DNA of 64,000 nucleotides from an uncultured bacterium (GCA_963696395.1 CAVOJZ010000002.1:495317-559316); one strand, 5' to 3'; shown: positions 8,450 to 42,453, counted from the stretch's first letter. Numbers and translations are program-made. Notes: generated by a model not told the origin, from the sequence alone.

Positions 8450-9590
8450 CGCGAATTCAATCTTGAAATGCAACATCTCCGCGGGTGAGAATATCGGTAC
8501 GTCGAATACCAAAAACCCACATAACGGAGATGTCGCACTCGCATTTTACGCGCGACGACCGTGTCGCGCTAGCCCACCTGCTCTTGGTGGGCAAAACACA
8601 GTCATGGATCGCGGACCGGCTTGGCAAGAGTCCGGGTACAATCAGTCGGGAGATCAGGAGGAACCGTGATGATGACGGCGTATATCGCGGCGGCAGCGCC
8701 CATCACAAGACACAATACCGAAGGTTTGCTGCCAAAGAACCGTCGCAGAAATTGAAGCATGATCGAACGCTCCGCCGCCATGTCATGCGAAAACTCAAGC
8801 ACTATTGGTCGCCCGAACAGATCGCGGGACGTTTGCAGCGAATGACGAAACACACCGTCGTCTCCCATGAGACGATTTACCAGTTCGTATACCGCGACCG
8901 GTCGGACCTCAAAAAATATCTGCGGTATCAAAAGGGAAAGTGGCGCAGGAGGCGTGGCACGAACACGAGGAAAGCCAAGCGGAACGCATTGAAAATCAGG
9001 CGAATCGAAGAACGCCCACCGGTGGTTGAGGAGCGCAGGCGAATCGGCGACTGGGAAGGCGATACGATTCTTGACCGCACCAAAAAGCAACGGATGCTCA
9101 CCCACGTCGATCGGGCGAGTGGTTTTGGTGCGGCGGACAAAGTCGAAAAAGTCACTGCGGAGAACGTACATGCGATCACGCGCGATCGGTTCAAAAAGAT
9201 CCCGAAGAAAAAGCGGCACACCATGACACGTGACAACGGTCCTGAGTTCGGCGATTACGATCGTTTGCTTGAAAAAGATATTGATATTACCGTCTACCGC
9301 GCGACGCCCTATCACTCTTGGGAACGCGGATCGAATGAGAATTGGAACGGCCTGCTCCGGCAATTCTTTCCAAAAGGTATGGATTTTGCTATCGTGAAAC
9401 AATCCGATATCGACCGAGTCGTCCGACTGCTCAATGACCGTCCGAGAAAACGGCTCGGCTATCTCACTCCACGAGAGGTGTTCAATGGTCGTTGCGATTC
9501 AAACTAGAATTCAGGGTTGCAAAACACGTTAACCCTGACACAATTACCGAGGCGAAAGTTTCTCGGGTCGATAGGGAGTTTCTCTTGAAT
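8450..9590 (+). mobile_element. IS30-family element (boundaries approximate, inverted repeats not resolved)
   Basis: transposase gene 8530-9507. Only weak ATTCAA-containing candidate ends near 8455 and 9585. Confidence 0.35.
8530..9507 (+). CDS. IS30-family transposase
   Basis: HTH_38-like N-terminus (DRVALAHLLLVGKTQSWIADRLGKSPGTISREIRRN), GDWEGDTI and TRDNGPEF DDE motifs. Start taken at MSHSH (ATG 8530). Confidence 0.8.
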   Translation: MSHSHFTRDDRVALAHLLLVGKTQSWIADRLGKSPGTISREIRRNRDDDGVYRGGSAHHKTQYRRFAAKEPSQKLKHDRTLRRHVMRKLKHYWSPEQIAGRLQRMTKHTVVSHETIYQFVYRDRSDLKKYLRYQKGKWRRRRGTNTRKAKRNALKIRRIEERPPVVEERRRIGDWEGDTILDRTKKQRMLTHVDRASGFGAADKVEKVTAENVHAITRDRFKKIPKKKRHTMTRDNGPEFGDYDRLLEKDIDITVYRATPYHSWERGSNENWNGLLRQFFPKGMDFAIVKQSDIDRVVRLLNDRPRKRLGYLTPREVFNGRCDSN

Positions 9591-23824: not shown

Positions 23825-24265
23825 ATGAAGAACCCGTCCTTGCCTCCATTGCCACCGACTGCGCCGCACCGCGATTATCTTGCCGAATTGCAGTCGCTCA
23901 ATGAGCCGATGAAGCGGCGCGTGCTGATCGCGGCGAGCGCTGTTGTGATGGCGCTCGTGGTATTCGTGTGGGTCGGCTATTTCAATAACATTGTAATGAG
24001 CAACCAATCCGGCCTGGCGGACCAGAGCGCGATCGCGCAGTCGGGAACTGTTGCCCCTGCGGCAGCAGCTGCACCTGTAGCCCCCGCAACGCCGACATCG
24101 GTTGCCGATCTGTCGAACGCCCCCAGTTTTTGGCAAACGCTCGGCGGCGGTATCGCTTCGATGTATCATGGCATCATCTCCGGACTCAAGGAGCCGAGGC
24201 AGTATGACATCGTGCCGGCGCCAAATCAGGGGATACCGACGGTTCAATCGGTCGTGACACAGTAA
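23825..24265 (+). CDS. membrane-anchored hypothetical protein (Ala/Pro-rich)
   Basis: TM helix ~res 35-55. The antisense ORF 23765-24406 is Arg/Cys-rich and judged spurious. Confidence 0.35.
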   Translation: MKNPSLPPLPPTAPHRDYLAELQSLNEPMKRRVLIAASAVVMALVVFVWVGYFNNIVMSNQSGLADQSAIAQSGTVAPAAAAAPVAPATPTSVADLSNAPSFWQTLGGGIASMYHGIISGLKEPRQYDIVPAPNQGIPTVQSVVTQ

Positions 24266-24280
24266 TAATTTCCAGCATCC

Positions 24281-26716
24281 ATGGCAAACAATTCCGAAAA
24301 GCGCGAAATAACCAAAGAGCTCAGCGAATCCTACCTCGACTATGCGATGTCGGTTATTGTTGCGCGCGCCCTTCCGGATGTGCGCGACGGATTGAAGCCG
24401 GTCCATCGGCGTGTGTTATGGGCAATGTGGGATTCGGGACTCACGCATACGGCAAAGACGCGCAAATCCGCAAACGTTGTCGGTGAAACGATGGCGCGAT
24501 ACCATCCGCATGGCGACAGTGCGATCTACGACACCTTGGTCCGCATGGCTCAGGACTTTTCGCTGCGCTATCCGCTCGTGAAAGGGCAGGGAAACTTCGG
24601 CAGCGTTGACGGTGACTCGCCGGCTGCGATGCGTTACACGGAAGCAAAACTTTCCGCGATCGCCGAAGAGATGTTGCTCGACATCGAAAAAGAAACGGTT
24701 GACTGGATGCCGAACTACGACGCGACGCGTGACGAGCCGAAAGTGCTTCCGGCGAAGCTGCCGAATTTATTGCTGAACGGCACGCTTGGCATCGCCGTCG
24801 GCATGGCAACAAGCATCCCGCCGCACAACTTAAACGAAATCTGTGATGCCATTTTGCATCTCACTGAAAATCCGGACGCAACAAGCGAAGACCTTGTGCA
24901 ATTTGTGAAGGGTCCCGACTTTCCGACCGGCGCCATTATTTATGATGCAAAAGCGATCAAACAGGCGTACGTTTCCGGCCGCGGGGCGATCCTTGCGCGC
25001 GCGAAAGCGGAAATTGTGGAACAGAAAGCGGGAAAGCAGTTCGACATTGTGATCACGGAAATTCCGTATCAGGTCAATAAATCCGAGTTGATAAAAAACA
25101 TCGCCGAACTTGCGCAGGAGAAAAAAATCGAAGGCATCCGCGACCTCCGCGATGAATCGGATCGCGACGGCATGCGCATCGTGATCGAACTCAAGAATGA
25201 CGTGACGCCCCAGAAAGTTTTGAACTGGCTCTATAAGCACACCGAATTGGAACGCAATTTCAACCTCAATATGATTGCGCTCGTCACGGAAAATGGAGGA
25301 CTGGTCCCACGCCTTTTGACCCTGCGCGACATTCTGGTTGAATACATCGCCTACCGCAAAGAGGTGATCCGGCGCCGCACGCAATATGACCTCCGCAAAG
25401 CCGAAGAACGGGCTCATATCCTGGAAGGCCTTTCAAAAGCGCTCGATGCGATCGACCGCGTCATTGCAACCATCAAGAAATCGGAAAGCAAGGAAGCCGC
25501 CCACGGGAACCTTATGAAGACATTTAAATTTTCCGAGGTTCAGGCGACGGCTATTCTCGAAATGCGCTTGCAGACACTCGCCGCGCTTGAGCACGAAAAA
25601 ATTGATGAGGAATTAAAAGAAAAGAAGGCCTTGATCGAGGAATTGAAATTAATATTAAAGAGCCCGGCAAGGATATTAAAGATTATTAAAGAGGAGGTTG
25701 TGGGGCTCAAGGAAAAATATGGCGACGAGCGTCGCACGCAGGTTGTTTCCCGCGCGCCAGACCAGGTGAGCGACGAAGACCTTATCACCGACGAAGACGC
25801 CATCGTCACCGTTTCCGGAGGAGGGTATATCAAGCGCCTGCCGCCGGACACATTCAAATCCCAACGCCGCGGCGGCAAAGGCATCATCGGTTCCGAGGTG
25901 GCGGACGAAGATTTTCTGTCGCACTTCTTTAGCGCCCGCACGCATGATAACGTCCTATTCTTCACCGACCGCGGCCGTGTTTTTCAGACGAAGGTTTACG
26001 AAATCCCGCAGGCAACGCGTACCTCTAAGGGAAAGGCGATTCAGAATTTCCTTGAGCTTCCCGCCGATGAAAACGTAAACGCCATTGTAAATTACTCTTC
26101 GAAGGGAGAGAAGAAGAAATATCTCATGATGGTCACCACGCAGGGCGTCATTAAAAAAACGCCGCTCGAAGATTTTGAAAACATCCGTCGCACGGGAATC
26201 ATTGCCATTTCGCTCAAAAAAGGCGACCACCTTAAGTGGGCGAGCCTCACGAGTGGTTCTGATCAGGTGGTTTTGGCGACGCGGCAGGGTCAGTCAATCC
26301 GTTTTGACGAGAAGCAGGTTCGTCCGATGGGGCGGACCGCAAGCGGAGTCCGCGCGATCAAGCTCAAGAAAAACAACGATGCGGTTGCCGGCTTTGATAT
26401 AATCAATAAAGCAGGTGAAGCGATGCTGTTGGTCGTCATGGAGAATGGTTACGCCAAGCAGACAACGCTCAAGGAATATAAAACGCAGAGCCGTGGCGGG
26501 TCGGGAATCAAGACCGCCGAGATCACGGCGAAGACCGGACTGCTCATTTCGGCGCATGTTGTGACGGAGCAAAAAGAAGTTTTTGCATTGTCCGCAAAAG
26601 GCCAGATGATCCGTACGGAAATTTCAACCGTGCGACACACCGGGCGTTCGGCGCAGGGCGTGCGCATTATGGATATGAAGAGCGGGGATCGCGTTGCAGG
26701 GACGGTGGTTATCTAG
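24281..26716 (+). CDS. gyrA: DNA gyrase subunit A
   Basis: N-terminal ESYLDYAMSVIVARALPDVRDGLKPVHRRVLWAM, catalytic Tyr region, C-terminal beta-pinwheel repeats. Confidence 0.9.
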   Translation: MANNSEKREITKELSESYLDYAMSVIVARALPDVRDGLKPVHRRVLWAMWDSGLTHTAKTRKSANVVGETMARYHPHGDSAIYDTLVRMAQDFSLRYPLVKGQGNFGSVDGDSPAAMRYTEAKLSAIAEEMLLDIEKETVDWMPNYDATRDEPKVLPAKLPNLLLNGTLGIAVGMATSIPPHNLNEICDAILHLTENPDATSEDLVQFVKGPDFPTGAIIYDAKAIKQAYVSGRGAILARAKAEIVEQKAGKQFDIVITEIPYQVNKSELIKNIAELAQEKKIEGIRDLRDESDRDGMRIVIELKNDVTPQKVLNWLYKHTELERNFNLNMIALVTENGGLVPRLLTLRDILVEYIAYRKEVIRRRTQYDLRKAEERAHILEGLSKALDAIDRVIATIKKSESKEAAHGNLMKTFKFSEVQATAILEMRLQTLAALEHEKIDEELKEKKALIEELKLILKSPARILKIIKEEVVGLKEKYGDERRTQVVSRAPDQVSDEDLITDEDAIVTVSGGGYIKRLPPDTFKSQRRGGKGIIGSEVADEDFLSHFFSARTHDNVLFFTDRGRVFQTKVYEIPQATRTSKGKAIQNFLELPADENVNAIVNYSSKGEKKKYLMMVTTQGVIKKTPLEDFENIRRTGIIAISLKKGDHLKWASLTSGSDQVVLATRQGQSIRFDEKQVRPMGRTASGVRAIKLKKNNDAVAGFDIINKAGEAMLLVVMENGYAKQTTLKEYKTQSRGGSGIKTAEITAKTGLLISAHVVTEQKEVFALSAKGQMIRTEISTVRHTGRSAQGVRIMDMKSGDRVAGTVVI

Positions 26717-26758
26717 CGTGGTGCGGATCTAACGTGCGGCGCGGGTGCCGCAACGAAT

Positions 26759-28102
26759 ATGCCTACAAAATTAACCCAAAAACAGGTCCTTATCATCGGT
26801 TTTGGATTTTTTGTCATAGTACTCATCGGGGTCGTGGTGTATTTTAATCTCCGTCATACGAATACCGCTTCGACGGCAAAGCTTGTCATGTGGGGCACGG
26901 ACGACCCGAAAGCTATGATGAGCATGATTGACGCCTACGAATCGGTGCACCAGGGCGCAACGGTCACGTATAAACAGATCGATCCCTCGTCATACGAGAC
27001 ACAGCTTTTGTCTGCGCTCGCTGCGGGGACGGGGCCGGATATTTTCGAAGTTAATGACCATGATCTGCCACAATGGGAAAATGTTTTGGCGCCAATGCCG
27101 ACGGCGAATGCCGAGCAATTTACCGTTGCAACCTTAAACAGTGATTACCCAACCGTTGTCGGGCAGGAATTTATGGACGGCGGCAGTATCTATGCCTTGC
27201 CGCTCTCACTCGACACACTTGCGATGATTTACAACAAAGATCTGGTTGATTCCGCCGGCATAGCGATTCTTCCAAAGAACTGGGACGATTTTGACACCGA
27301 CGTGACGAGATTACGGGCCGTAAATACCGAAGGGCAGATCACGCAGGCCGGCGCCGCGATCGGCGGATCCGAAACAAGCATTCCGAATGCCACAGACCTG
27401 CTCTATCTCCTAATGCTGCAAAACGGAGCCGTGCTTCCGTCGTCATCGTCCACGCCTGCTGTTTTTGCGAATGGCACCGGCAACGCGGACGGCGGAAGCG
27501 CGGACAGCGCAAGCGCAGGAGCAAACCCCGGACAGGCGGCTTTCGATTTTTATCTTCAATTTGCAAATGCCGGGTCGCCCTATTATACGTGGAACGATTC
27601 GATGGGTGACGCCGAAAGTAATTTCATACAGGGGAAAACCGCTATCATCTTCGGTTATGCGGCGCTTATGAATGATCTCAAACAAAAAGCGCCGTTCTTG
27701 AACTACGGCGTTGCCCCGATGCCGCAGCCCAGTGGCGCGACGGTTTTCGTAAATTATCCCAACTACGAAGGGCTTGCTGTTGCTCGCTATGGCCAGGTGG
27801 CGGCGGCTTGGGATTTTGTCATCAGCACGCTCACGAACCCAACGGATGTTGGGATGTATAATACAGATACCGGGACTCCGCCCGCGTTGCGGACTTCCAT
27901 CCAGGCCAACGTAAATGATCCGGTCTGGTCGGTATTCGGAGCGCAGGCACTCACCGCGCGGTCATGGTATGAAGCCGACGCCACAAAGATGGATGACGTC
28001 ATGAATGGGGCGATCGTAAGCGTTTTGAGCGGTGCGTCCGATTCCACGAAAGCTTTGCAAACCGCCCAGTCGGGCGTGAATGCCATCATTAATTCCCAAT
28101 AA
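26759..28102 (+). CDS. extracellular solute-binding protein (ABC-type, family 1). Orphan, no adjacent permease
   Basis: N-terminal TM anchor and SBP_bac_1-like features (KLVMWGTDDP...DIFEVNDHDLPQW). Confidence 0.55.
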   Translation: MPTKLTQKQVLIIGFGFFVIVLIGVVVYFNLRHTNTASTAKLVMWGTDDPKAMMSMIDAYESVHQGATVTYKQIDPSSYETQLLSALAAGTGPDIFEVNDHDLPQWENVLAPMPTANAEQFTVATLNSDYPTVVGQEFMDGGSIYALPLSLDTLAMIYNKDLVDSAGIAILPKNWDDFDTDVTRLRAVNTEGQITQAGAAIGGSETSIPNATDLLYLLMLQNGAVLPSSSSTPAVFANGTGNADGGSADSASAGANPGQAAFDFYLQFANAGSPYYTWNDSMGDAESNFIQGKTAIIFGYAALMNDLKQKAPFLNYGVAPMPQPSGATVFVNYPNYEGLAVARYGQVAAAWDFVISTLTNPTDVGMYNTDTGTPPALRTSIQANVNDPVWSVFGAQALTARSWYEADATKMDDVMNGAIVSVLSGASDSTKALQTAQSGVNAIINSQ

Positions 28103-28107
28103 TCGTT

Positions 28108-28593
28108 ATGACAAAAAAAGCAGGCGCGCTCATCTTCCTTGTTTCCATGATTGCAATCCTTGCCCTGCCGATGCTTGCGAATGCGCAAAATGCAACCGGA
28201 ATACCGTATTGGCCTACAAACGGTCTCATTTCGTGCGTTGGGAATTATAGCGTCGGAAATATAACAGGAGTTAATCCCAGTGGAAGGCCGACCTGTTCAA
28301 GCATTTGTGATCTTTTGCAGACCTTTGTGAATATTGTCTATTTCATCATTACGGTTTGTATTTTTGTGCTCGCGCCTATAATGTTCGCCGTGGGCGGGGT
28401 CATGATGATATTTTCCGGGGCGAATCCAGAAATGTTGAGTAAGGGAAAAAGTGTTCTATTGAGTACGGCGACCGGGATTGCGATCGTTTTGTGTTCCTAT
28501 CTTCTCGTTTTTACATTTATCAGCGTACTGAATGCAAACAGCAACGGGATTTTCGGCGGCACTCTGATGTGTACGCCTCAATATTCACAATAA
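28108..28593 (+). CDS. TrbC/VirB2-like pilin family protein (paralog 1)
   Basis: signal peptide, then two hydrophobic helices separated by SGANPE...KGK loop. Same architecture as four following paralogs. Confidence 0.45.
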   Translation: MTKKAGALIFLVSMIAILALPMLANAQNATGIPYWPTNGLISCVGNYSVGNITGVNPSGRPTCSSICDLLQTFVNIVYFIITVCIFVLAPIMFAVGGVMMIFSGANPEMLSKGKSVLLSTATGIAIVLCSYLLVFTFISVLNANSNGIFGGTLMCTPQYSQ

Positions 28594-28598
28594 GGAAC

Positions 28599-29501
28599 AT
28601 GAAAAAGGCGGCGATCCGAGCTTTTGCACTCTCTCTCGCGGTCGTTCCGCTTGCTCTCGCCCCGATCCTTGCTTTTGCCCAGGCTAAAATATCGCTCGCC
28701 ATTCCCGGAAGCTATTCGATCGCAACAAGCACACCTCCGGGCTACGTCATAGCCAATTTCTATCAATTCGCCCTTTCAATAGGCGGCCTGCTTGCATTCG
28801 GCGCCATCGTCTATGGGGGCGTGAAATATGTTGCCTCCGGAGGCAACCCGTCGGCGCAAAGCGAGGCGAAGGAATGGATTTGGAGCGCACTACTCGGTCT
28901 ATTGCTGCTCGTTTGCGCCTATTTCGTTCTCACCGCAATCAATCCAAACCTTGTCCATCTCGATCTCCCGACGCTCTCGCCGGTGAGTATCAGCCAAACA
29001 AATGTCGGCATTGGATATGGCGGCCCGCCGAGCAGTGGAGGCGGGGGCGGAAGTGGAGGGGGAGTCGGAAACGGAACGTGTAGCCCGGCTCCTGCAGGAC
29101 CTTGCAGTGTGAGCCAGCTTCAATCAAGCTGCATGGGGAGCAATGCGCAAGCGGCATCGGAAATCTGCATGAAAGAAAGCAGCGGTAACGCAGCGGCAGG
29201 CGGAGATATTTCCACCGGAGGCCAACCGGTTTCGATTGGTCTTTTCCAAATTAATCTTTCCGTGAATTCGATCGGTGGCCTAAATTGCCCTTCCGCCTTC
29301 AACCATTCTTGGCATGCGCCCGGTGTGTGCGGCAAAGCAGGTACGGGTTGCGGCCCAAGCACGATCACTAACCAAGCTCTTTACGCGCAATGCGTAGCCG
29401 CTGCGCAAAATGTTGCGACGAATATTGCGCAGGCGTGCGCGATGTCTAATTACGGGACAAATTGGAGCCAATGGAGCACGCACAAAACATGTGGTCTATA
29501 A
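28599..29501 (+). CDS. TrbC/VirB2-like pilin module fused via a Gly-rich linker to a lytic transglycosylase (SLT/lysozyme-like) domain (paralog 2)
   Basis: pilin-like N-domain (FALSIGGLLAFGAIVYGGVKYVASGGNPSAQSEAKEWIWSALLGLLLL), linker GGPPSSGGGGGSGGG, C-domain with SLT signature MKESSGN...SIGLFQIN and multiple Cys. Confidence 0.5.
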   Translation: MKKAAIRAFALSLAVVPLALAPILAFAQAKISLAIPGSYSIATSTPPGYVIANFYQFALSIGGLLAFGAIVYGGVKYVASGGNPSAQSEAKEWIWSALLGLLLLVCAYFVLTAINPNLVHLDLPTLSPVSISQTNVGIGYGGPPSSGGGGGSGGGVGNGTCSPAPAGPCSVSQLQSSCMGSNAQAASEICMKESSGNAAAGGDISTGGQPVSIGLFQINLSVNSIGGLNCPSAFNHSWHAPGVCGKAGTGCGPSTITNQALYAQCVAAAQNVATNIAQACAMSNYGTNWSQWSTHKTCGL

Positions 29502-29517
29502 TGGAAATACATTCATA

Positions 29518-30030
29518 ATGAATAAAAAAATTATCATTATCGGCGTGGGAATCCTGATTATCGTCGCCGCCATCGTCATCTATTTTGTTCTTCAGGGTTC
29601 TCCGTCGGGCACCGGTAGCGCGGGGACTGTGGGATCAGGACTCCCGATATCCACGAGCACCACTATGCACGTTGCGCCGACGGGTACAACGATCACGCTT
29701 GGCACGAGTCAAGGGAGCGTGGTCACCGACAATTTTTATAACACCGCCGATTACATTACGCAGGATCAACAAACAGTTGTGATGAATCAGACGTCAACCT
29801 ATAGTATTGTCTACAATGTTTCAGATAGCAGTTTCATCATCACTATCCTCGCGGAACCTCTCGAAGCGAATCGCCAGCTAGCAGAAGCGGCATTTCTTAA
29901 ATCTCTAAAAATTTCGGAGCAGAGTGCGTGCAAATTGAACGTTTATGAAGCGGTGCCGGCGAGCGTATCCGACCAAGCTTCTGGCAAGCCATTCCCTTTG
30001 AGTTTTTGCGGGACCCCATCTCCACTGTAA
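29518..30030 (+). CDS. membrane-anchored hypothetical protein within the pilin cluster
   Basis: N-terminal TM (KKIIIIGVGILIIVAAIVIYFVL), Ser/Thr-rich extracellular part. Start set at the internal ATG 29518. Confidence 0.35.
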   Translation: MNKKIIIIGVGILIIVAAIVIYFVLQGSPSGTGSAGTVGSGLPISTSTTMHVAPTGTTITLGTSQGSVVTDNFYNTADYITQDQQTVVMNQTSTYSIVYNVSDSSFIITILAEPLEANRQLAEAAFLKSLKISEQSACKLNVYEAVPASVSDQASGKPFPLSFCGTPSPL

Positions 30031-30052
30031 AGAAAACGACAGATATTCTATA

Positions 30053-30451
30053 ATGAATAAGATGAAATATGCGATGAAGAGGGGTTTCGGTTTGGCCGCC
30101 GCCGCGCCTGTCGTTTTTGTTGCATGGATGAGTGTGGCGCTCGCGCAATCAACGGGAGGTTCGACGAATATCACGCTGTGCGACCCTTTGGGGAACAATT
30201 GTCAGCCTGGCAACGAAACTTTTTTGTCATTAGCAAATAATGTGATCGGTTTCATTTTTTGGGACATAGCAACGCCGTTGTCGGTGATTATGGTGTTGGT
30301 CGGCGCGTTTCAACTCATGACTTCGGGTGGAAATCCGGAAAAAGCATCGCAGGGTCGCAAAACGATTATGTATGCAGCGATCGGGCTTGCGGTAGCTATT
30401 GCGGCAAGCGGTTTAGCCACTTTCATTAAGAGCCTTCTTAATGGAAGTTGA
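30053..30451 (+). CDS. TrbC/VirB2-like pilin family protein (paralog 3)
   Basis: signal peptide plus helix-SGGNPEKASQGRKT-helix (IMYAAIGLAVAIAASGL). Confidence 0.45.
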   Translation: MNKMKYAMKRGFGLAAAAPVVFVAWMSVALAQSTGGSTNITLCDPLGNNCQPGNETFLSLANNVIGFIFWDIATPLSVIMVLVGAFQLMTSGGNPEKASQGRKTIMYAAIGLAVAIAASGLATFIKSLLNGS

Positions 30452-30490
30452 CAGTGGCACCGCAAACGGTCGAACATAAATAAAAAATTC

Positions 30491-30892
30491 ATGAACAGAA
30501 TAAAAATTTGGTTTGTGCGATGGGCGCCGGTAATCGTCCCGATTGTATATCTCGGCATGAGGGTAGTGGCAGCTCCGCTCGCGCACGCAATTGACCAGCC
30601 TCCGCCTCCTCCGGTCACCGATCAAGCGGATCTCGCCAAATTGATGTGCAATATTGTTTCCTGGTTCTTTTGGATAGTGATCGTAATTTCCGTGATCATG
30701 ATTTTGTATGCCGCGTACACGTATGTCACGGCGGCTTCGGATCAGGAAAAAACCAGCAAGGCCCGGAGGACGTTAACCTATGCAGCCGTCGGCATCGCGG
30801 TCGCGGTCATCGCCGCGGGTTTCCCGGCGATTGTGTCCAGCATTATTCCAAACGAGCCAAATGTCAGTCTTATGGATACGTGCTCGTTCTGA
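30491..30892 (+). CDS. TrbC/VirB2-like pilin family protein (paralog 4)
   Basis: helix-AASDQEKTSKARRT-helix (LTYAAVGIAVAVIAAGF). Confidence 0.45.
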   Translation: MNRIKIWFVRWAPVIVPIVYLGMRVVAAPLAHAIDQPPPPPVTDQADLAKLMCNIVSWFFWIVIVISVIMILYAAYTYVTAASDQEKTSKARRTLTYAAVGIAVAVIAAGFPAIVSSIIPNEPNVSLMDTCSF

Positions 30893-30976
30893 TGTGTAGG
30901 CGGTTGTTAATTAAGGGGTGATTGTGATAGTCTAAATAAGTACTCAGGAAAGGTCGAATATTCCTCACTATTATCT

Positions 30977-31345
30977 ATGAAGAAAACCATCGCCTTTATC
31001 AAGATGTTCGGTCCTACGATCGCATCTTTGGCGTTGCCGGCATTGGTTATGGCTCAGGCGCCGCCGCCGGTTCCGAATACCAATATTACAAGCTTGAATT
31101 CGATCCTCGCGCTTTTGTGCGTGGTCTTTGGATGGGCATTCTGGTTCTTGGTTGTGCTTGCCGTCATCTTCGTTATGGTTGCTGCGTTCCGTTATCTTTC
31201 GGCCGCCGGCAATCCTGAAAATGTTGGTAAAGCCGGAAGCACACTGCTCTATGCGGCGGTTGCAATCGGCGTCGCGCTTCTTGCCCGCGCTGTTCCGTTC
31301 GTTATCGGGACGTTTTTGGGCGCAGGGCAGATCAATTCCTGCTAA
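30977..31345 (+). CDS. TrbC/VirB2-like pilin family protein (paralog 5)
   Basis: signal peptide plus helix-AAGNPENVGKAGST-helix (LLYAAVAIGVALLA). Confidence 0.45.
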   Translation: MKKTIAFIKMFGPTIASLALPALVMAQAPPPVPNTNITSLNSILALLCVVFGWAFWFLVVLAVIFVMVAAFRYLSAAGNPENVGKAGSTLLYAAVAIGVALLARAVPFVIGTFLGAGQINSC

Positions 31346-31372
31346 ATCCTGAAAGTTCTAGAGATAAGAAAA

Positions 31373-31409
31373 AGCTCCTCGCGATAAAATCGCGGGGAGC
31401 TTTGTTTTT
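31373..31409. terminator. bidirectional rho-independent terminator between the pilin cluster and convergent minus-strand genes
   Basis: agctcctcgcg-ataaaat-cgcggggagct hairpin followed by TTGTTTTT. Confidence 0.6.
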
Positions 31410-31415
31410 GGTTCG

Positions 31416-32294
31416 TTACAGGTTCTCGTGAACCACCGGGACTTCAGACAATACCATTTGGTAGTGACCGTAGTTCCATGTGTAGGGAAACGATATGGTG
31501 AGCGTCGGTGCGCCACCGATAACCGGCTTGGTTTGGTGGATGGTGACCGTGCAATTGACCCAGCCCTTCTCGCCGAGTCCGGCTTCAAGCCATGTGTGAT
31601 TTGTTTGTGGATCACACGTGAAGCTTTCGTTGCCGGGCTGTGCGTACTGGTTCCCTTGATCGTCGAGAAAATGGAAATTCTCCGGAGAAAAGTTGTGTCG
31701 TTCGCCTCCCACGTTCCGCGTCTTCATCGGACATCGGATCTCGGCGCCGTGCTGCACGCATGCGATTTGCACCTGCACATCGCCATTCGGTTCAAACCTT
31801 TTGAGAATGAGTTTTGAAACCAGTTGGGCCGGCGCGTCGGTTCCCGCTTCTTTTGCCGCAACACCTACCGCCGAAGATTCAATTCGCTGGCCCGGGACAG
31901 TGGTTGTAGTGATTTTCACGTCCGGATCCGTATTTTGATCTGGCTCCGGTTGTGACTGCGGGGGAGATTTTTTCTCGGCGTCGCTCGCCGATTTCCCTTC
32001 CGCCTTCTTCTTGTTGTTCGGGGACGTTTTTCCCGAAGCGTGCCCGACCGCCGACGTGCCGAAGTCCGTTGCGTGCGTTTGAGCGGTTGTTTGTGTTTGT
32101 CCTGTCGCGGTCGCGACTTCTCCTTTTTTAGTTCCCGCCGCTTCGGAATGTGACGCATTCAAAGTTTTCGTTGTCGGTGTTGTTGTCTTAGCGTTCGATC
32201 GTGGCCACAGCCAGATCGTGGTTGCAATCGCGGACACAAGCGCAATTCCACAGAGAAGGAGGCCGGTCCGGGTCCTTGTAGCAGAAAGATTCAT
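31416..32294 (-). CDS. secreted Lys/Thr/Pro-rich hypothetical protein
   Basis: N-terminal signal/TM anchor, low-complexity K/T/P-rich region, C-terminal globular domain. Confidence 0.35.
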   Translation of the reverse strand: MNLSATRTRTGLLLCGIALVSAIATTIWLWPRSNAKTTTPTTKTLNASHSEAAGTKKGEVATATGQTQTTAQTHATDFGTSAVGHASGKTSPNNKKKAEGKSASDAEKKSPPQSQPEPDQNTDPDVKITTTTVPGQRIESSAVGVAAKEAGTDAPAQLVSKLILKRFEPNGDVQVQIACVQHGAEIRCPMKTRNVGGERHNFSPENFHFLDDQGNQYAQPGNESFTCDPQTNHTWLEAGLGEKGWVNCTVTIHQTKPVIGGAPTLTISFPYTWNYGHYQMVLSEVPVVHENL

Positions 32295-32421
32295 TGGGAT
32301 TTCCCTCGGTCTTCAGTTTTGAAATGCTGCATACAATATAACATATAATATAGACTTTGTCAAAGTAGCGTAAAGTATAAAAAAGCCCAGCAGAATATCC
32401 TGATGGGCCGAGCCTGAAGGC

Positions 32422-32985
32422 TCAATTTTTTGTTATCCACAATGTGCCATGTCCTTGCACATAGAAGTCGATCGTTGATTCTCCGGCCTGCATGCAGCCG
32501 TAGAAATCGCCGCCTCGGTTGAAGGCCGCCGGATTCGGATCGCTCATATAGCTAACCTCTTCCGGGCGGATTGGTTTTGGATACCGGTCTCCGTTGCACC
32601 AGACTGTGGCGTAATCGCCCGGGTTCTGGCTCTTCTGGAAAAAGCAGCCTGCGCCGAACGTGCACATTGGAGGAAGGACGACATGTGTGCAATATCCCCC
32701 TTCGTGCAGTTGAAGTTCAACCTGGTACACGTCTGTTCGTCGGCCTAAGTCGACGGATTTGATGTGCCCAGCATCGCATCGTGCGAGTTTGTAGTTGGGA
32801 TAGAAGTGGGTAGCGTTCAACTGAGATCCCCGTTTTGGCAGCGAATATATCACCGTTGCCGCCACGATGATCGCCACGATCCACAAGAGAAGGCGAGGGC
32901 GCGGTATCCGCACCCTGTCTACATTCCTATGAAAATGGAGATCCGGAGATTCTGTTTGCGGTTTGGTTTGTACCGGAGGCGCCAT
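32422..32985 (-). CDS. secreted Cys-containing hypothetical protein
   Basis: TM anchor (LLLWIVAIIVAATVIYSL), 10 Cys in the extracytoplasmic part. Confidence 0.35.
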   Translation of the reverse strand: MAPPVQTKPQTESPDLHFHRNVDRVRIPRPRLLLWIVAIIVAATVIYSLPKRGSQLNATHFYPNYKLARCDAGHIKSVDLGRRTDVYQVELQLHEGGYCTHVVLPPMCTFGAGCFFQKSQNPGDYATVWCNGDRYPKPIRPEEVSYMSDPNPAAFNRGGDFYGCMQAGESTIDFYVQGHGTLWITKN

Positions 32986-32986
32986 G

Positions 32987-34216
32987 TCATTTCTCCTTCC
33001 CGCCGGAAATCTTATCGGCTATGGCCCTAGTGATCGGACTGAACAGAGCCTCGGCCAGAGTTTGCATCGAGAGGTCGAGTTCAATCTTGTTCACCTGTGT
33101 ATTTTGCCCGGCAAGCTTTCTCTTGATGAGGGTCGCTTGCAAGGGATCGATTGTCTTAGCGACGCCAGAATTAAGATATCCTTTCGCTTCGTTCACGATA
33201 CTATCTGCGGTGATTTTCTGTGCCTCGGCGTCCGCCTCTGCCTTGAAAACCGTCGTCAGGGTTTCTTTCGTCGTCGCATCCGGCTCCAAGTTGTCTACGA
33301 CGAGCCGTTTTATGACGATGCCTAAGGCATGCAGGGGGAAGGATTGATCTCCGTTGCGTACCGCATTGATGAATTTTAATAGTTTTTTCATCGCTGCGTT
33401 AATCTCTTCCTTTCTGTCGTCAGGGTATTTGTCGAAGACGTTGTTTTTCCATTCTAGTTCTTTCGGCCTAAGCGCTCTGTTCTTGTAAAAGCCCATAAGA
33501 GCTTCGGTCGGGATCTCAGAAGGGATGTGGACGATATCGCCTTTAATGAGATTTTCAAGAATCTCATTAATTGCCTCGTCGCCCATTTGCCTCGCTTGAT
33601 CAAGATCGTGAGGCCCCTTTTCCTTAGAAACAATCCAACGCCGCAACACTTCACCGATTTGTTCGGTGAGGCGTCGTTCAACTTCAGGAAATCCGCCAAC
33701 GATTAAGATTTGTGACGGATTTTCCGGATCGATCGTGAAATAAACTTTTATCGGAACCACCACGACCGCCCGATCGCCCGGAACCATCTCTTGCGTAGAA
33801 AAACGACATGCAAGCTCTTCGCCGGTCATGGAGATGAATCCTATCGTGAAATCGCTTCGGAGCGGACACCATATCCAGCCCCATTCAATCAGCTCGTTCA
33901 CCGGGACTCCGGCGACGGTTGGGATGATGTTCGTTGGTGGGTCGATGGGGACGTAGTAGAATCCGTGCCAGATAAATAATCCGACAAGGATCACCGCGAT
34001 TTCCACTCCAACCCAGTGATTCCATAGGATGATCGGCGTGGAAATGGCTCCTACACAAGACAAACCTACGAACGTGAAAATCCAACGCCGCACGTGAAAG
34101 CTTTCCATTTTCCGTCGTTTGCCATCCCTGGTCTTGCGTTCGGGTTGATCGACATTTTCTGCGCCATCGTTTACTAGGGGTGTATCATTTTCCTCATTTG
34201 CCATAAAATCCTCCAT
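32987..34216 (-). CDS. SPFH/band-7 (stomatin/prohibitin-like) domain membrane protein with C-terminal coiled coil
   Basis: two N-terminal TM helices, SPFH-like beta-rich core (DRAVVVVPIKVYFTIDPENP), long helical C-terminus. Confidence 0.4.
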   Translation of the reverse strand: MEDFMANEENDTPLVNDGAENVDQPERKTRDGKRRKMESFHVRRWIFTFVGLSCVGAISTPIILWNHWVGVEIAVILVGLFIWHGFYYVPIDPPTNIIPTVAGVPVNELIEWGWIWCPLRSDFTIGFISMTGEELACRFSTQEMVPGDRAVVVVPIKVYFTIDPENPSQILIVGGFPEVERRLTEQIGEVLRRWIVSKEKGPHDLDQARQMGDEAINEILENLIKGDIVHIPSEIPTEALMGFYKNRALRPKELEWKNNVFDKYPDDRKEEINAAMKKLLKFINAVRNGDQSFPLHALGIVIKRLVVDNLEPDATTKETLTTVFKAEADAEAQKITADSIVNEAKGYLNSGVAKTIDPLQATLIKRKLAGQNTQVNKIELDLSMQTLAEALFSPITRAIADKISGGKEK

Positions 34217-34654: not shown

Positions 34655-37600
34655 ATGGCAGTATCCTCGAAGCAATTAGTTCTTGCCGAGGGGCAGACAA
34701 AACAACCACTCTCCACAAAGAGCTCCTTCAAGCCGAGCAAACAACAGAAGAAATCCCTCTATATATTGATCGCCCTTGGGCTTGTCTGTTTTGGGGTGCA
34801 GGCGAAGCAGGCACATGCGGCGATTTCATTGGTGGCCACGAGTAGCGCAACGGCAGGCGGGAGTAGTGTTACCACCCCCGCAATCAACACGACAGGCGCT
34901 TCTCTCATTGTCGTGGTGGGTTCCACTAATGCAGGTACGTCAACCGTATCTGATAACAAAAGCAATACTTGGCATGTGTTATCTACCTGGGCGGGAGGTA
35001 ATAATGATATACAAATATTCTACGCATATACCCCTACTACGAGCTCTACCCAGACTTTCACGATCACCAGTGTCGGTTCGGGTAACTATCCGAGTTTAGT
35101 AGTGTCTGCATGGTCGGGGACGCTCGCCACCTCAGCGGTGTTCGACACCCAGAACGGTTCTAGCACCACAAATAGTGTTACCTCTTTCGGTACCGGCTCC
35201 ATAACCCCCGCGTCGATGGGAGAACTCCTCATCGGGGGTTTGGGCATGGGTCCCTGCACAGCACCGACGAACATATCCCTAAGTCCGGGATTCTCCATTC
35301 TCGGTTCGAACGGCGTTACCGGATGCCAGGGGGAAGCAGTGTCATCCGCCTATCTCATCGATTCGAGTACGAACGCTATCGGGCCACAATGGTCGTGGTC
35401 ACCCATTGTGGGCGGCGTGGTCACGGACATCGCGGCGTTTGAATCGGCAGTTCCCAGCATTTCTTCATTCTCTGCATCTCCCTCCGCTATTGGCTCTGGC
35501 GCTTCATCCACTCTTTCGTGGAACGTCACGAATGCCTCCTCCGTCGCCATTACTCCCGGCAGCTTCTCCACCTCTACCCTCATTGCTTCTACCACGGTGA
35601 GTCCCACCTCCACCACAATCTATACCCTCACTGCCACGAACGCCAATGGCACAAGCACTGCAACAACAACCGTCACGGTGGACAACACCACCCCCACGAC
35701 CCCTACGAGCGTCGTTGCCACCGCGTTCTCGGGATCACAGATCAATCTCACCTGGGCCAGCTCCACGGATAGTGGGGGATCGGGTATTGCTGGCTACAAT
35801 ATCTTCAGGTGCACGGGTGGAGCTTGTACCCCGAATACAAGGGTTGCGACCTCATCCGGTGCTTTATACAGCGACACCGGTCTCAGTGCCTCGACTACTT
35901 ATACGTATGCTATCCAGGCATATAACGGGGTGGGTACCGTTTCCGCAACCTCCACCACGGCGAGCGCAACGACCTTGCCCCCAAACACCATCGATGCGGC
36001 TTCATGCAGTGAGAGTGCTGTGCAGACGGCGATCAGTAACGCTTCGTCTGGCTATACCGTCGTTATCCCATCGGGTACCTGCACGTGGACAAGCGAATTA
36101 TCGATCACGACGCCCATTACGCTCACAGGAACTGGCACGCCGAATTCAGGATCAGGAACGACCGGCGCGGCGACCCCATCAACCATCATCATAGATAACG
36201 GAGGTTCCAGTAACCCGTTGATGCTATTTGAGCCAAGTTATGGTAGTCCTGATGTGCGCCTTTCGATGTTGGCTATCGATCCGTACAGTACTTCTACTGC
36301 ACTTACTGACCCGATATGGATTGAAGGCGCATGTGCCGCCGGGGGATGCCCATACGTACGAATCGACAATCTTACATTCGGATTGAACACCTATTGGTCC
36401 GAAGGTGGCAACGGTTCAAATGCTGAGGCAGGAATTCTCGCGGAAAACGTGTTTGGCGTTGTTGACCATAACACAATCGGGAGCATAGCAACGCCAGCCA
36501 ACAACTTCGAATTGTTTAACGCTCAGCTGGGATCGTACCTCGGGATAGGGCAGTACGGGGATAACTCATGGGTACAGCCGGACTCGTTTGGCGGAGCCAA
36601 TAACCTATACGCGGAGAACAACCTGGACTACGACGCGGGCTATTTGCCGATGACCGACGCCGAGCAGGATTCTGAGTTCGCGATCCGTGGCGGGAGTCGC
36701 GTGGTTGCGCGGGACAACGTTTTACACCAAGGTTCCGGGAATACGGGCGGCTACGGACTATTTCAGGATCATGGCACCGATTCGGGGGGGAGGGCGCGCG
36801 GATCACGCGAAGCTGAAGTTTACGACAATTTCATTTATTGTGATGGAACCACTACAAACTGCTCAGGCGTAGATGGCGCATTGCGCAGCGGGACGGGACT
36901 GTTCTTTGGCAATAGCTTTACATCTGCGTTAGGCTCGGGGCCATGGGTTAGCCTAGCGCTTTATCGCAACGACACGGCGTCATGGAGTCCTTTTTCTCCG
37001 AACTGCGGCGGCTTTGATCCATGGGACAATAACGACAACGCCAGCGTTAGCTCAGTCTATACCATTACCTCCACAAGCACGGGCGCGATCAACGATACCA
37101 GTGCCGGATGGACTGCGGGCCAGTTTGCCCCCGTCGCTGGATCGAACGCATACCTCTTCTATGATGTGACCGCTTCAGCGAATCCGGTCGTAGCCGCGAT
37201 CACCGGAAACACGGCCACACAGCTATCATTGGGAGCTTTTACAGGCGGCACGCCGTCTCCCGGTGACACCTTTGTGATCGTCGGGAGTCATCTTTACTAT
37301 GCGGGCACGGTCACTGCTGTCTCTGGCACTGGCGGGACAGGAAACACCGGAATGACTAACAGCGCCGCCAATTTCGGAAGTACAAACTCCCTGATTCCGT
37401 CTGGTGCGCCATATTCAGTGTTTGATGCCACTGGGGGGTGGGGCGGTGAGATCTCCGGTAATACCTCGACTACTATTACAGTGCAGGGTTACATTGGTTA
37501 TGGCCCGTATGGATTCTCGGTCAGCGACACGTATTGGGTAACCCGTGCGACCGTATGTATCGATCAGCCAACGCGCGGGCAGCAGACCAGTTCCATGCTC

Positions 37601-41209: not shown

Positions 41210-42097
41210 CTATTCTTTTCTCCTGTTCCCGTGAAATGCCTTGTGCACTTCGCGAAGTTCCTTGTTGGTGAGGTGCGTGTAGATCTGCGTCGTTGAGATA
41301 TTGGCGTGGCCGAGCAGTTCCTGCACCGACCGGAGGTCGGCGCCATTCACAAGAAGATCGGTTGCAAAGCTGTGGCGAAGCTGGTGAGCGTGGATATGCT
41401 TTGGAATCCCGGCTTCGCGTGCGCGGCGCTCAACGACGCGCTGGACCGCGCGCGGGGTAACAGGACCGATCACCTTCCCGGATTTATCCAGGCTCACGAA
41501 TAATTTCTCCTCGGGGTCACTGCGCTTTTCCATGTAAAGTTTAATCGCTTCACGCGCCGAGTCGGATATGAATACCACGCGCAACTTGTCGCCTTTGCCG
41601 CGCACGGTGACTTCGCCCCGGCGAAGGTCAATGTAACGACTCAGAGAGCAAAGCTCGGACAGACGAAGGCCGGTTGAGAAAAAAACCTCAAGGATAGCGC
41701 GGTCGCGCAAGGCGCGGATATCATTTCCCTTTGGCGCGGAAAGCAATCGTTCGAGGTCGCCATATTCAAGCACCTCAATTTGCCGCGAAGGTGTTTTGGG
41801 AAGCTCAATTTTTTCCGCCGCAAGCGCCTTTATATCCCGCTTCGCCAGATATTTCAAAAAATTCCGAATAGCGATGACATAGTAGCTTTGTGTAAGTTTT
41901 TTGAGGTCGCGGCGAGCGAGAGCGAGGCGGAATTCGCGAACCGCCGAATCCGTTATCTCCCGCGCAAGTTTTACTTTAGAAAATTTTAAGAATTCATTCA
42001 GATAATGTTCGTAATTTTCGCGCGTCTTCGGCGATCGGTTTTTTTCGATCTCAAGATAGTTCAGATAATCGTGCAACAATGTTTCGACTTCGGTCAT
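41210..42097 (-). CDS. tyrosine site-specific recombinase XerC/XerD family
   Basis: C-terminal catalytic region HQLRHSFATDLLVNGADLRSVQELLGHANISTTQIYTHL. Start placed at ATG 42097 (MTEVETLL) to avoid overlap with rpsO. Confidence 0.75.
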   Translation of the reverse strand: MTEVETLLHDYLNYLEIEKNRSPKTRENYEHYLNEFLKFSKVKLAREITDSAVREFRLALARRDLKKLTQSYYVIAIRNFLKYLAKRDIKALAAEKIELPKTPSRQIEVLEYGDLERLLSAPKGNDIRALRDRAILEVFFSTGLRLSELCSLSRYIDLRRGEVTVRGKGDKLRVVFISDSAREAIKLYMEKRSDPEEKLFVSLDKSGKVIGPVTPRAVQRVVERRAREAGIPKHIHAHQLRHSFATDLLVNGADLRSVQELLGHANISTTQIYTHLTNKELREVHKAFHGNRRKE

Positions 42098-42186
42098 GTT
42101 ACCAGTATACCGCGATCTGTCGTAAAAGGGGGAGCCAAGGCGCACGGGCTTGCGCTTTTCGTCTAAGCGCGTTATAATAGGTTGTA

Positions 42187-42453
42187 ATGTTAACCAAGCG
42201 AGTAAAAGCCCGCATAATCGGGGAAAGTGCAAAGCACGATAAGGACACCGGCTCAGCCGGCGTTCAAATTTCGGTTGTTTCACGCCAGATCGATGAGTTG
42301 GCTTCTCACCTCAAGAAAAATCCAAAAGACAATCATTCGCGTCGTGGTCTTTTAAAAATGGTTTCCAAGCGGCGCAAACTTTTGGCATACATGAAGAAGA
42401 AAGAAGGGTCTGCATACGAAAAGTTGATTAAAAAGTTGGATCTCAAGCGTTAG
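42187..42453 (+). CDS. rpsO: 30S ribosomal protein S15
   Basis: 88 aa. DTGSAGVQISVVSRQIDELASHLKKNPKDNHSRRGLLKMVSKRRKLLAY matches the S15 signature. Confidence 0.85.
   Translation: MLTKRVKARIIGESAKHDKDTGSAGVQISVVSRQIDELASHLKKNPKDNHSRRGLLKMVSKRRKLLAYMKKKEGSAYEKLIKKLDLKR

Follow-up and report, generated by a model that had tools for sequence, protein, structure and literature searches.

A gyrA-proximal pilin gene array with a pilin–lysozyme-like fusion in a Patescibacteria chromosome, probably a detached module of a type IV secretion system

Divergent VirB2-like pilin genes occur as arrays in the Patescibacteria, where a survey that relied on the Pfam families PF18895 and PF04956 recorded 441 arrays in 383 assemblies, each comprising 2-11 pilin genes in tandem or split by one non-pilin gene, with a mean paralog identity of ~25% and a maximum of 54% (Quiñonero-Coronel et al. 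2025, PMC12102498). Of the 1,948 assemblies having both, only 1,135 had pilin genes proximal to virB4, so that separation of the two is common in this group; VirB1 homologues were found in few of the pilin-bearing genomes (PMC12102498). Of 3,035 Patescibacteria assemblies, 2,417 (~80%) have VirB4, often close to dnaA. The array of Southlakia epibionticum (SEML1_0014-0019) lies inside a type IV secretion system (T4SS) cluster (Wang et al. 2023, PMC10633639) and is essential (PMC10633639; PMC12857230); PF18895 pilins rank among the highest-expressed unknown genes in cultures of Ca. Minisyncoccus and Ca. Microsyncoccus (PMC10936435). Few machines have been proven essential for the epibiotic life of Patescibacteria, and the T4SS is among them. 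The Patescibacteria-type system forms a lineage nested in the monoderm MPF-FATA class, and reviews treat VirB2-like pilins as an oddity of this Gram-positive-type T4SS; no pilus has been reported for any Patescibacteria T4SS (PMC12102498, PMC12857230, PMC10633639). T4SS pilin genes have also multiplied in tandem and diverged in the VirB2 arrays of Bartonella and Anaplasma, a pattern interpreted as surface variation or host adaptation (cited in PMC12102498).

The pilin locus described here is chromosomal and belongs to an ultrasmall Patescibacteria bacterium; it was analysed within a 64-kb stretch of a 913,682-bp contig, referred to below as the window. ORF finding on the plus strand returned, at the start positions given in the initial annotation, five pilin-domain genes, which encode paralog 1 (28108..28593, 161 aa), a pilin–lysozyme-like fusion in second position (28599..29501, 300 aa), paralog 3 (30053..30451, 132 aa), paralog 4 (30491..30892, 133 aa) and paralog 5 (30977..31345, 122 aa). 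A single non-pilin gene interrupts the series after its second member, and pairwise identities among the paralogs are 20-34%, which puts the locus within the published definition of an array. An alternative start at 30074 would shorten paralog 3 to 125 aa, and a 125-aa version also appears as a gene call.

All five products match PF18895 (T4SS_pilin), four of them above its gathering score of 26.6 bits (the fusion at 42.4 bits, paralogs 3, 4 and 5 at 41.0, 34.7 and 32.7 bits, respectively); paralog 1, whose orthologs occupy the equivalent position in relatives' loci, scores below the cut-off (22.3 bits, E 1.4e-4) but was recovered with a clade-specific pilin HMM built in this analysis. By these matches the short pilins (paralog 1 less firmly than the other three) and the N-terminal region of the fusion belong to the T4SS_pilin family, which bears out the earlier description of five tandem VirB2/TrbC-type pilin paralogs. 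That description holds for PF18895 pilins but not for the TrbC family as a threshold match: PF04956 (TrbC/VirB2, gathering score 27.9 bits) recognized only paralog 3, at 23.0 bits (E 9.1e-5), and none of the other four pilin products at E <= 0.1. Paralog 3 also gave a weak match to NF045849, a Mycoplasma ICE pilin-like model, and a profile search with the pilins returned no significant PDB-sequence match. Many members of the T4SS_pilin family bear additional extracellular domains, and some chains hold several pilin units.

In the translations each pilin product opens with an N-terminal hydrophobic signal segment of the Sec type that closes with an AxA motif, the next residue being Q in four products and I in paralog 4 (ANA-Q in paralog 1, then AFA-Q, ALA-Q, AHA-I in paralog 4, and VMA-Q), and hydropathy places two hydrophobic helices around a short K/R-rich loop. 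This is the VirB2-type architecture of signal peptide, two hydrophobic helices and short polar or basic loop that characterizes RP4 TrbC, Ti-plasmid VirB2 and F TraA, and the topology expected here, with both ends outside, is that of TrbC/VirB2 pilins. Unlike the Gram-negative systems, only one paralog attains even a sub-threshold PF04956 score (23 vs 27.9 bits), the host is monoderm, and VirB4, VirB5 and VirB6 are not encoded adjacent to the array. TrbC and VirB2 undergo head-to-tail peptide cyclisation, whereas most of the pilins here have a cysteine at each end instead. In paralog 1, which carries a Cys-rich N-terminal extension, these are C67 before helix 1 and C155 in the C-terminal tail; paralog 4 (loop SDQEK) has C53 and C131, and paralog 5 (loop AGNPEN) has C48 and C122, the latter being its last residue, with orthologs in relatives that terminate in ...SC or ...GC. 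Paralog 3 is without the terminal pair and has a local C43/C50 pair. Because the two cysteines, one per end, co-occur in most of the short pilins, a disulfide tying the two ends together is suggested.

The fusion gene starts at an ATG with an AAGGAA ribosome-binding site just 5' of it and encodes, in order, a signal peptide, a VirB2-like hairpin whose two helices span residues 47-79 and 84-114 of the model, a Gly-rich linker (residues 129-157 at low model confidence) and an SLT_3 domain (residues ~158-300) containing E193-S194, a GLFQIN motif and conserved cysteines. It had been described as a VirB2–VirB1-like fusion, a description that stands insofar as the C-terminal domain is of the lysozyme superfamily and matches PF18896 SLT_3 (35.5 bits, E 1.4e-8, cut-off 27) but fails for the classical SLT domain: PF01464 gave no match at E <= 0.1, and the resemblance to that family is confined to the Glu-Ser and G-L-x-Q motifs. 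The closest solved fold is that of C-type lysozyme, and the first core helix of the domain bears a conserved, presumably catalytic Glu; by these two features we assign it to the superfamily. In sequence the domain is not significantly related to proteins of the C-type lysozyme/alpha-lactalbumin fold, nor does it significantly match any solved lysozyme or transglycosylase; PDB-sequence profile searches with the full fusion and with the isolated SLT_3 domain returned nothing significant, and hhalign against hen lysozyme aligned the GLFQIN motif alone, at a probability of 2%. Since a conserved Ser occupies the position of hen lysozyme Asp52, the chemistry of the SLT_3 domain may be that of a transglycosylase.

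Across 37 homologs of the fusion E193, S194, G214, F216, Q217 and N219 are invariant, and eight cysteines are likewise invariant or else conserved in at least 90%. Precomputed annotation of close homologs is mostly PF18895 together with PF18896, and the pilin hairpin is present in 56 of 68 SLT_3 ORFs, the others being cut by a contig end or having two membrane helices immediately before the domain. Such SLT_3–pilin hairpin fusions are widespread (838 clusters at 50% identity), and they are candidates for the VirB1 role in lineages that include Paceibacteria and Moranbacteria. The occurrence of a lysozyme-superfamily domain in T4SS operons (here, in those of relatives) parallels VirB1, TraG of pIP501, PrgK and TcpG, hydrolases that presumably make a gap in the wall for the secretion machinery, and the fusion is a candidate for VirB1 function. 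It departs from these proteins in that its cysteine-rich domain belongs to PF18896 rather than to PF01464 or CHAP combinations, and in that the domain is covalently joined to a pilin hairpin, whereas VirB1-type hydrolases are soluble or anchored by a single helix; the VirB1, TrsG and CD419 profiles of the 2025 survey missed it (PMC12102498).

Immediately after the fusion lies the non-pilin gene of the array (29518..30030, plus strand), which encodes a membrane-anchored, Ser/Thr-rich protein of 170 aa without a family assignment; its ATG at 29518 agrees with the gene call L001 4836-5348 and with P0224 (170 aa). Its N-terminal membrane helix is followed by a disordered linker rich in Ser and Thr and by an ectodomain of ~110 residues, built of beta-sheet and helix, in which two cysteines are invariant. 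Partner and fusion form a conserved gene pair, the partner being nearly obligatory beside the fusion. A VirB8- or TcpC-like subunit was considered for this protein and rejected, the combination of an N-terminal membrane helix with an NTF2-like ectodomain not being found.

Set against the published Patescibacteria arrays, the locus is alike in its PF18895 pilins with weak PF04956 similarity, its tandem genes, its non-pilin interruption and, as is often the case, the lack of an adjacent virB4; it adds no new kind of system, virB4-distant pilin arrays being already known. What is modestly new is the fusion as a candidate for the VirB1 role, its unannotated conserved partner, and the terminal cysteines in most of the short pilins; an SLT_3-fused pilin with a conserved partner appears in neither PMC12102498 nor PMC10633639. 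Instead of a fusion, the S. epibionticum cluster has a separate hydrolase of several domains (SEML1_0006, with phage-tail lysozyme, glucosaminidase and cysteine peptidase). The present array is placed after gyrA and the gene of a solute-binding protein. The Bartonella and Anaplasma arrays differ in belonging to diderm intracellular pathogens, in lying in or beside complete virB operons, and in having no enzyme fusions.

The gene upstream of the array (26759..28102, plus strand) encodes a membrane-anchored solute-binding protein (SBP_bac_1, Pfam E 2.4e-26; hydrophobic segment at residues 5-34), and its stop lies 5 nt before the first pilin gene; from this gene through paralog 5 the intergenic gaps measure 5, 5, 16, 22, 39 and 84 nt. 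Plus-strand positions 24000 to 31400 contain no promoter-like site scoring >=10/12. A strong hairpin with a T-run (31371..31403; stem of 15 bp with 8 G-C pairs, then GTTTTTGGTT) separates paralog 5 from the convergent gene on the minus strand and is likely the end of the plus-strand transcription unit. The minus strand downstream encodes the two secreted or anchored proteins noted in the initial annotation, neither with a family match, while the SPFH protein listed with them is a weak Band_7 match at 17.7 bits, below the cut-off.

Elsewhere in the window a Pfam scan of ~56 longer ORFs picked as likely genes, which took in every ORF above ~320 aa and all but a few of the plausible genes of 120-190 aa, returned housekeeping genes only; there was no ABC permease or ATPase gene for SBP_bac_1 among the ORFs scanned, in keeping with the description of the solute-binding protein as an orphan. 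Genes for VirB4, VirB3, VirB6 and a coupling protein are likewise absent from the 64 kb, as had been claimed for VirB4, VirB6 and VirD4: besides the Pfam scan, profile HMMs made from related loci (VirB4, PrgI/VirB3, a TraC-like protein, a ~1000-aa membrane protein and further operon members) matched none of the window's ORFs in any of the six frames, not even at E <= 10. The FtsK_SpoIIIE family is itself related to T4SS coupling ATPases; the single FtsK/SpoIIIE-family protein of the window (47725-49905) contains FtsK alpha and gamma domains and is therefore read as chromosomal FtsK, not as a coupling protein. An integrase gene (41210-42283) adjoins the PNPase gene. A mobile-element origin was rejected, GC content being uniform over the window and the integrase–PNPase adjacency being common to the relatives L006 and L010.

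The genomic context of the fusion in relatives links it to secretion machinery. In 18 of 58 species-level genomes the fusion and its partner lie directly downstream of a PrgI–TraC-like–VirB4 operon, the fusion following VirB4 at no more than 10 kb and sharing one operon-like cluster with it; one such locus, L008, reads PrgI, TraC-like, VirB4, a 257-aa protein, an Rce1-like protein, a 1041-aa protein, fusion, partner. This gene order marks the pair as a T4SS component. In the clade of the present locus the order is gyrA, solute-binding protein, pilin, fusion, partner and 3-5 pilins, which persists to 30% fusion identity, and the GyrA–SBP–pilin order is kept in 11 species-level loci and in additional metagenome contigs. 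No VirB4 lies within 10 kb of the gyrA–SBP-type clusters in these 11 genomes, and 10 more loci have neither VirB4 nor the gyrA–SBP context within 7-10 kb upstream. The solute-binding protein is conserved only together with the whole gyrA neighbourhood and is absent from the VirB4-linked contexts; a functional link to the pilins is conjectural.

We read the locus, with a probability of roughly 0.6, as a detached pilin module of a Patescibacteria-type T4SS that stands beside gyrA and the solute-binding protein gene rather than beside virB4, and we infer its dependence on a distant VirB4 ATPase from the relatives and from the prevalence of that gene. After cleavage of the signal peptides the hairpins would reside in the membrane, their basic loop facing the cell interior and both of their ends the exterior, until a VirB4/VirB6-type machine with its genes at another place in the genome would extract them for polymerisation into a thin pilus or short pseudopilus contacting the host cell, the sequence-divergent paralogs supplying alternative or mixed surfaces. 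The pilin hairpin of the fusion would act as a targeting anchor that brings the exposed lysozyme-like domain to the assembly site, where this domain would cut peptidoglycan in the VirB1 role and the downstream partner would modulate or restrain it. A bolder and rather doubtful version has the fusion co-polymerise with the short pilins, so that lysozyme-like heads on flexible Gly-rich tethers would form a wall-piercing pilus directed against the host, with the partner as a membrane-anchored inhibitor protecting the producer and the short pilins closed by an end-to-end disulfide that replaces TrbC/VirB2 cyclisation; if the enzyme does ride on the pilus, this would offer a concrete mechanism for host-wall breach. 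It is also conceivable, albeit unlikely, that fusion and partner form an effector–immunity pair in which the lysozyme-like domain, pilus-displayed or released, acts on the host wall while the membrane-anchored partner shields the wall of the producer. A role in DNA uptake or attachment is speculation here, as it is in the literature.

In the T4SS studied so far, VirB4 extracts VirB2-type pilins from the membrane. This speaks against a self-contained surface filament or envelope module assembled without a VirB4-type ATPase, for example through Sec insertion and self-association, as do the 18 species whose VirB4 operons include the orthologous pair of fusion and partner, and the presence of VirB4 in ~80% of Patescibacteria assemblies, with pilins distant from it in ~40% of those having both; we consider such a module very unlikely, even with ATPase and channel genes absent from the 64 kb, 11 gyrA–SBP clusters lacking VirB4 within 10 kb, and 10 further loci showing neither context. 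The initial annotation had proposed a self-contained module that was not functionally described, which could not be upheld given the 441 published arrays (PMC12102498), the essential S. epibionticum array and the VirB4 linkage of the fusion pair in 18 of 58 genomes. A role without an extended filament, in which the pilin-like hairpins would serve only as membrane anchors or channel-lining subunits, forming a stalk or pseudopilus within the T4SS or just holding surface domains, would agree with the general lack of pili in Gram-positive-type T4SS (PMC12102498, PMC12857230), with a Patescibacteria T4SS pilus never having been imaged, and with the extra domains and multi-unit chains in the family; paralogs that are this numerous, this small and this quick to diverge nonetheless suit exposed filament subunits, as in Bartonella and Anaplasma, and the high expression of PF18895 pilins (PMC10936435) points the same way, leaving this an improbable alternative. 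Small two-helix membrane proteins beside a lysozyme-fold enzyme also recall a prophage lysis cassette of holin-like proteins and endolysin, and a holin-like or other unrelated two-TM family was the assignment that the initial annotation had named as counting against its own proposal. No such assignment was found: none of nine proteins matched a PHROG, the pilin products have cleavable signal peptides and PF18895 matches instead, there are no phage genes nearby, the chromosomal position between gyrA and housekeeping genes is kept in many species, and the fusion is VirB4-linked elsewhere. We rejected the cassette, whose probability is close to negligible, on the missing PHROG matches and the conserved chromosomal synteny.

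The VirB4 protein of L008 has at least 8000 homologues at E <= 1e-30; the 120 matches listed among these are all at least 70% identical and come mostly from Moranbacteria or the Parcubacteria group.

Seven genes lie close together on the plus strand between positions 26759 and 31345 of the window, encoding in order a membrane-anchored solute-binding protein (26759-28102), a 161-aa pilin (pilin 1, 28108-28593), a 300-aa protein that joins a pilin unit to a lysozyme-like domain (28599-29501), a 170-aa membrane-anchored partner protein (29518-30030) and three further pilins of 132 aa (30053-30451), 133 aa (30491-30892) and 122 aa (30977-31345). Because the intergenic gaps are short (5, 5, 16, 22, 39 and 84 nt, in order), the last pilin gene is followed at 31371-31403 by a hairpin (15-bp stem) with a T-run, and a site scan found no good promoter-like site on the plus strand from gyrA to that gene, the arrangement suggests one transcription unit, possibly with gyrA included. 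The solute-binding protein gene stops 5 nt before the pilin 1 gene, and no ABC permease or ATPase gene to go with it was found in the scanned ORFs of the 64-kb window; in every gyrA-linked relative this gene keeps its place between gyrA and the first pilin gene.

The proposal in the initial annotation that the cluster encodes five pilin paralogs was borne out. All five candidates match PF18895 (T4SS_pilin) in Pfam, four of them exceeding the gathering threshold, which the first (28108) does not reach, and the third (30053) gives an additional sub-threshold TrbC/VirB2 match. Each has a signal segment with AxA at its end and, by hydropathy, a K/R-rich loop between two hydrophobic helices, with 20-34% identity among the paralogs. 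None of the cluster genes matched the PHROG phage protein families. The products of 30053, 30491 and 30977 also weakly match NCBIfam NF045849 (23-30 bits against a cut-off of 40), the 'Mbov_0395 family pilin-like conjugal transfer protein' of Mycoplasma ICEs, a resemblance hinting that VirB2-like pilins may also occur in some MPF-FATA-type systems of wall-less monoderms.

In the 28108, 30491 and 30977 pilins a cysteine marks the outer end of helix 1 and a second lies in the short tail that follows helix 2; the 30053 product lacks both. In a set of 78 distinct short pilins, taken from the window together with every fetched locus, both end cysteines are present in 51, neither in 24 and just one in 3, a co-occurrence whose nominal Fisher p of 1e-16 overstates the support because the orthologs, representing about four or five orthogroups, are not independent. 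The pairing suggests an intramolecular disulfide that would link both ends of the pilin. Such a putative end-to-end disulfide would parallel in function the head-to-tail cyclisation that TrbC and VirB2 pilins undergo. Some database proteins of 550-620 aa (P0266, P0267 and P0364) are tandem pilin fusions with four to six pilin units per chain.

In the 300-aa fusion, the pilin unit (residues 1-120) is followed by a Gly-rich linker (residues 129-157) of low model confidence and by a C-terminal domain (residues ~158-300) that matches PF18896 (SLT_3) above threshold in Pfam. Among 37 aligned homologs E193-S194, the GLFQIN residues G214, F216, Q217 and N219, and also Y262, N275 and W292 are invariant, and eight cysteines are at least 90% conserved or fully invariant. 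The earlier reading gave this protein an SLT-type lytic transglycosylase domain; the domain matches SLT_3 and has the conserved Glu-Ser and GLFQIN motifs, but did not match the classical SLT family in Pfam. Sequence-profile searches against solved structures and hen lysozyme returned no significant match. We conclude that the domain is a member of the lysozyme superfamily, either a lytic transglycosylase or a hydrolase. Given the expected VirB2-type hairpin topology, with both ends outside the membrane, it would be extracytoplasmic, a placement consistent with its many conserved cysteines and with peptidoglycan as substrate.

An identical fusion protein is already on record in the database, on a contig of 913,682 bp; the organism has also been assembled from run ERR11563597. 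A word-indexed search recovered approximately 100 homolog clusters at 90% identity, most of them combining PF18895 and PF18896, with named sources in Minisyncoccia, Paceibacterota or Parcubacteria. Scanning all 1.84 billion representatives with an HMM returned 838 clusters at E <= 1e-30, with end-to-end coverage in a single stretch for most of the best 150 of these, and 25,957 clusters at E <= 1e-10, many of which we assume to be pilin-only proteins. The fusion is closely associated with its neighbor: a homolog of the 170-aa partner follows it in 47 of 54 evaluable loci, and the window partner matches the HMM of this partner family at 4.8e-60. The partner has no Pfam, NCBIfam or PHROG match, and its alignment comprises a membrane helix, a Ser/Thr-rich linker and a conserved domain of ~110 residues that contains two invariant cysteines.

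The surroundings of the fusion differ between lineages. Close relatives (fusion identity 44-62%) share the order S1, a metallo-beta-lactamase-fold gene, a small gene, gyrA, the solute-binding protein, pilin 1, fusion, 170-aa partner and three to five pilins, which is also the order in the window; this gyrA-linked order is kept even in L058, a locus with a fusion identity of only 30%. Two further contigs, contig_32526 (ERZ25039540, 827,485 bp) and DAIDJL010000002.1 (314,167 bp), have this arrangement as well. In more distant Patescibacteria (loci labelled Moranbacteria, Nomurabacteria, Paceibacteria, Doudnabacteria and 'Saccharibacteria') the fusion and a homologous partner come immediately after a T4SS operon with the order PrgI (VirB3-like), TraC-like, VirB4, small protein, Rce1-like protease and ~1000-aa protein, which in locus L008 is close to dnaA. 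Counted over 58 species-level loci, 18 are VirB4-linked, 11 are gyrA–SBP-linked, 10 show neither context within 7-10 kb upstream and 19 are too short to tell. Judged from gene order, the fusion and partner form one unit, which in many lineages is part of the T4SS operon and which in the window's clade probably moved together with the pilins. A pilin hairpin precedes the domain in 56 of 68 SLT_3 ORFs in the fetched loci; six of the remaining 12 are truncated at contig ends, and six are proteins of ~640-1070 aa (L032 4702-7317, L038 7490-10468, and in L043, L051, L057 and L060) with SLT_3 at the C-terminus and two membrane helices directly before it, which look as if the operon's large membrane protein had been joined to the pilin–lysozyme unit. 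The Rce1-like (CAAX/CPBP) intramembrane protease, encoded between virB4 and the ~1000-aa protein gene (L008 6159-6839, with homologs in L022, L029-L031, L034, L036 and L046), is a possible pilin-processing enzyme; an HMM search of the window ORFs found no homolog.

The absence of machinery genes from the window, as initially annotated, was confirmed. A Pfam scan of ~56 longer ORFs, likely genes that include all the large ones, found no T4SS machinery; the products recognised were all housekeeping or other non-T4SS proteins, among them trigger factor, a PAS histidine kinase and its response regulator, FtsH, SHMT, FolD, S1, GyrA, PNPase, RecA, an FtsK that carries alpha and gamma domains, a cysteine desulfurase-like enzyme, HtrA, ClpB, two transposases, a Xer-type recombinase and two very large putative surface proteins. 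Clade-specific HMMs for eight T4SS operon proteins likewise had no match in six-frame window ORFs at E <= 10.

Such separation has precedent. A 2025 survey that covered 3,035 genomes of Patescibacteria (PMC12102498) found VirB4 in 2,417, often near dnaA, and VirB2-like pilins (PF18895 and PF04956) in 1,948 of the assemblies with VirB4, of which only 1,135 had them near virB4; the survey described 441 pilin arrays of 2-11 genes each with a mean identity of 25%, and the majority of pilin-bearing genomes had no VirB1 homolog, PF18896 not being among the profiles used. We found no mention of PF18896 in the literature searched. The pilin array of Southlakia epibionticum lies inside its T4SS cluster and is essential, and the hydrolase of that T4SS is a different multi-domain protein, unlike the fusion in the window (PMC10633639). 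In cultures of Ca. Minisyncoccus and Ca. Microsyncoccus, PF18895 pilins rank among the genes of unknown function with the highest expression (PMC10936435), and a 2025 review regards a possible pilus as the most intriguing feature of this Gram-positive-type system (PMC12857230). The locus is a member of this known class of Patescibacteria VirB2-like pilin arrays, situated apart from the ATPase genes, as is common. The proposal of a module that is self-contained and undescribed does not give the best reading, since such arrays are published and the fusion and partner occur in T4SS operons of other lineages; the observation behind it stands, the interpretation is partly supported, and what is new here is a few previously undescribed details of a known array class.

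The most economical mechanism is one in which the pilin hairpin would bring the enzyme to the site where the machine handles pilins, the lysozyme-like domain would open peptidoglycan there, and the partner would control the enzyme. A more novel possibility is that the enzyme is displayed on the filament and acts on the host wall.

Beyond the terminator hairpin, three convergent minus-strand genes (31416-34216) encode a 292-aa anchored Ser/Thr/Lys-rich protein, a 187-aa anchored Cys-rich protein and a 409-aa weakly Band_7/SPFH-like protein, the last with 30-41% identity to counterparts in loci L002, L003, L006, L007 and L018 and undetected at the corresponding position in L004 and L005. Adjoining divergent transposase genes at 7512-8417 (minus strand) and 8485-9507 (plus strand) encode rve integrase cores and HTH domains. 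The gene at 34655-40525, which shows strong negative GC skew at 38-40 kb, encodes a 1956-aa protein that contains five fibronectin type III stretches and long Ser/Thr-rich repeats and has a peptidoglycan-binding domain at its C-terminus, and that at 59148-62657 a 1169-aa protein with a peptidoglycan-binding domain at its N-terminus; both may be surface proteins or adhesins.
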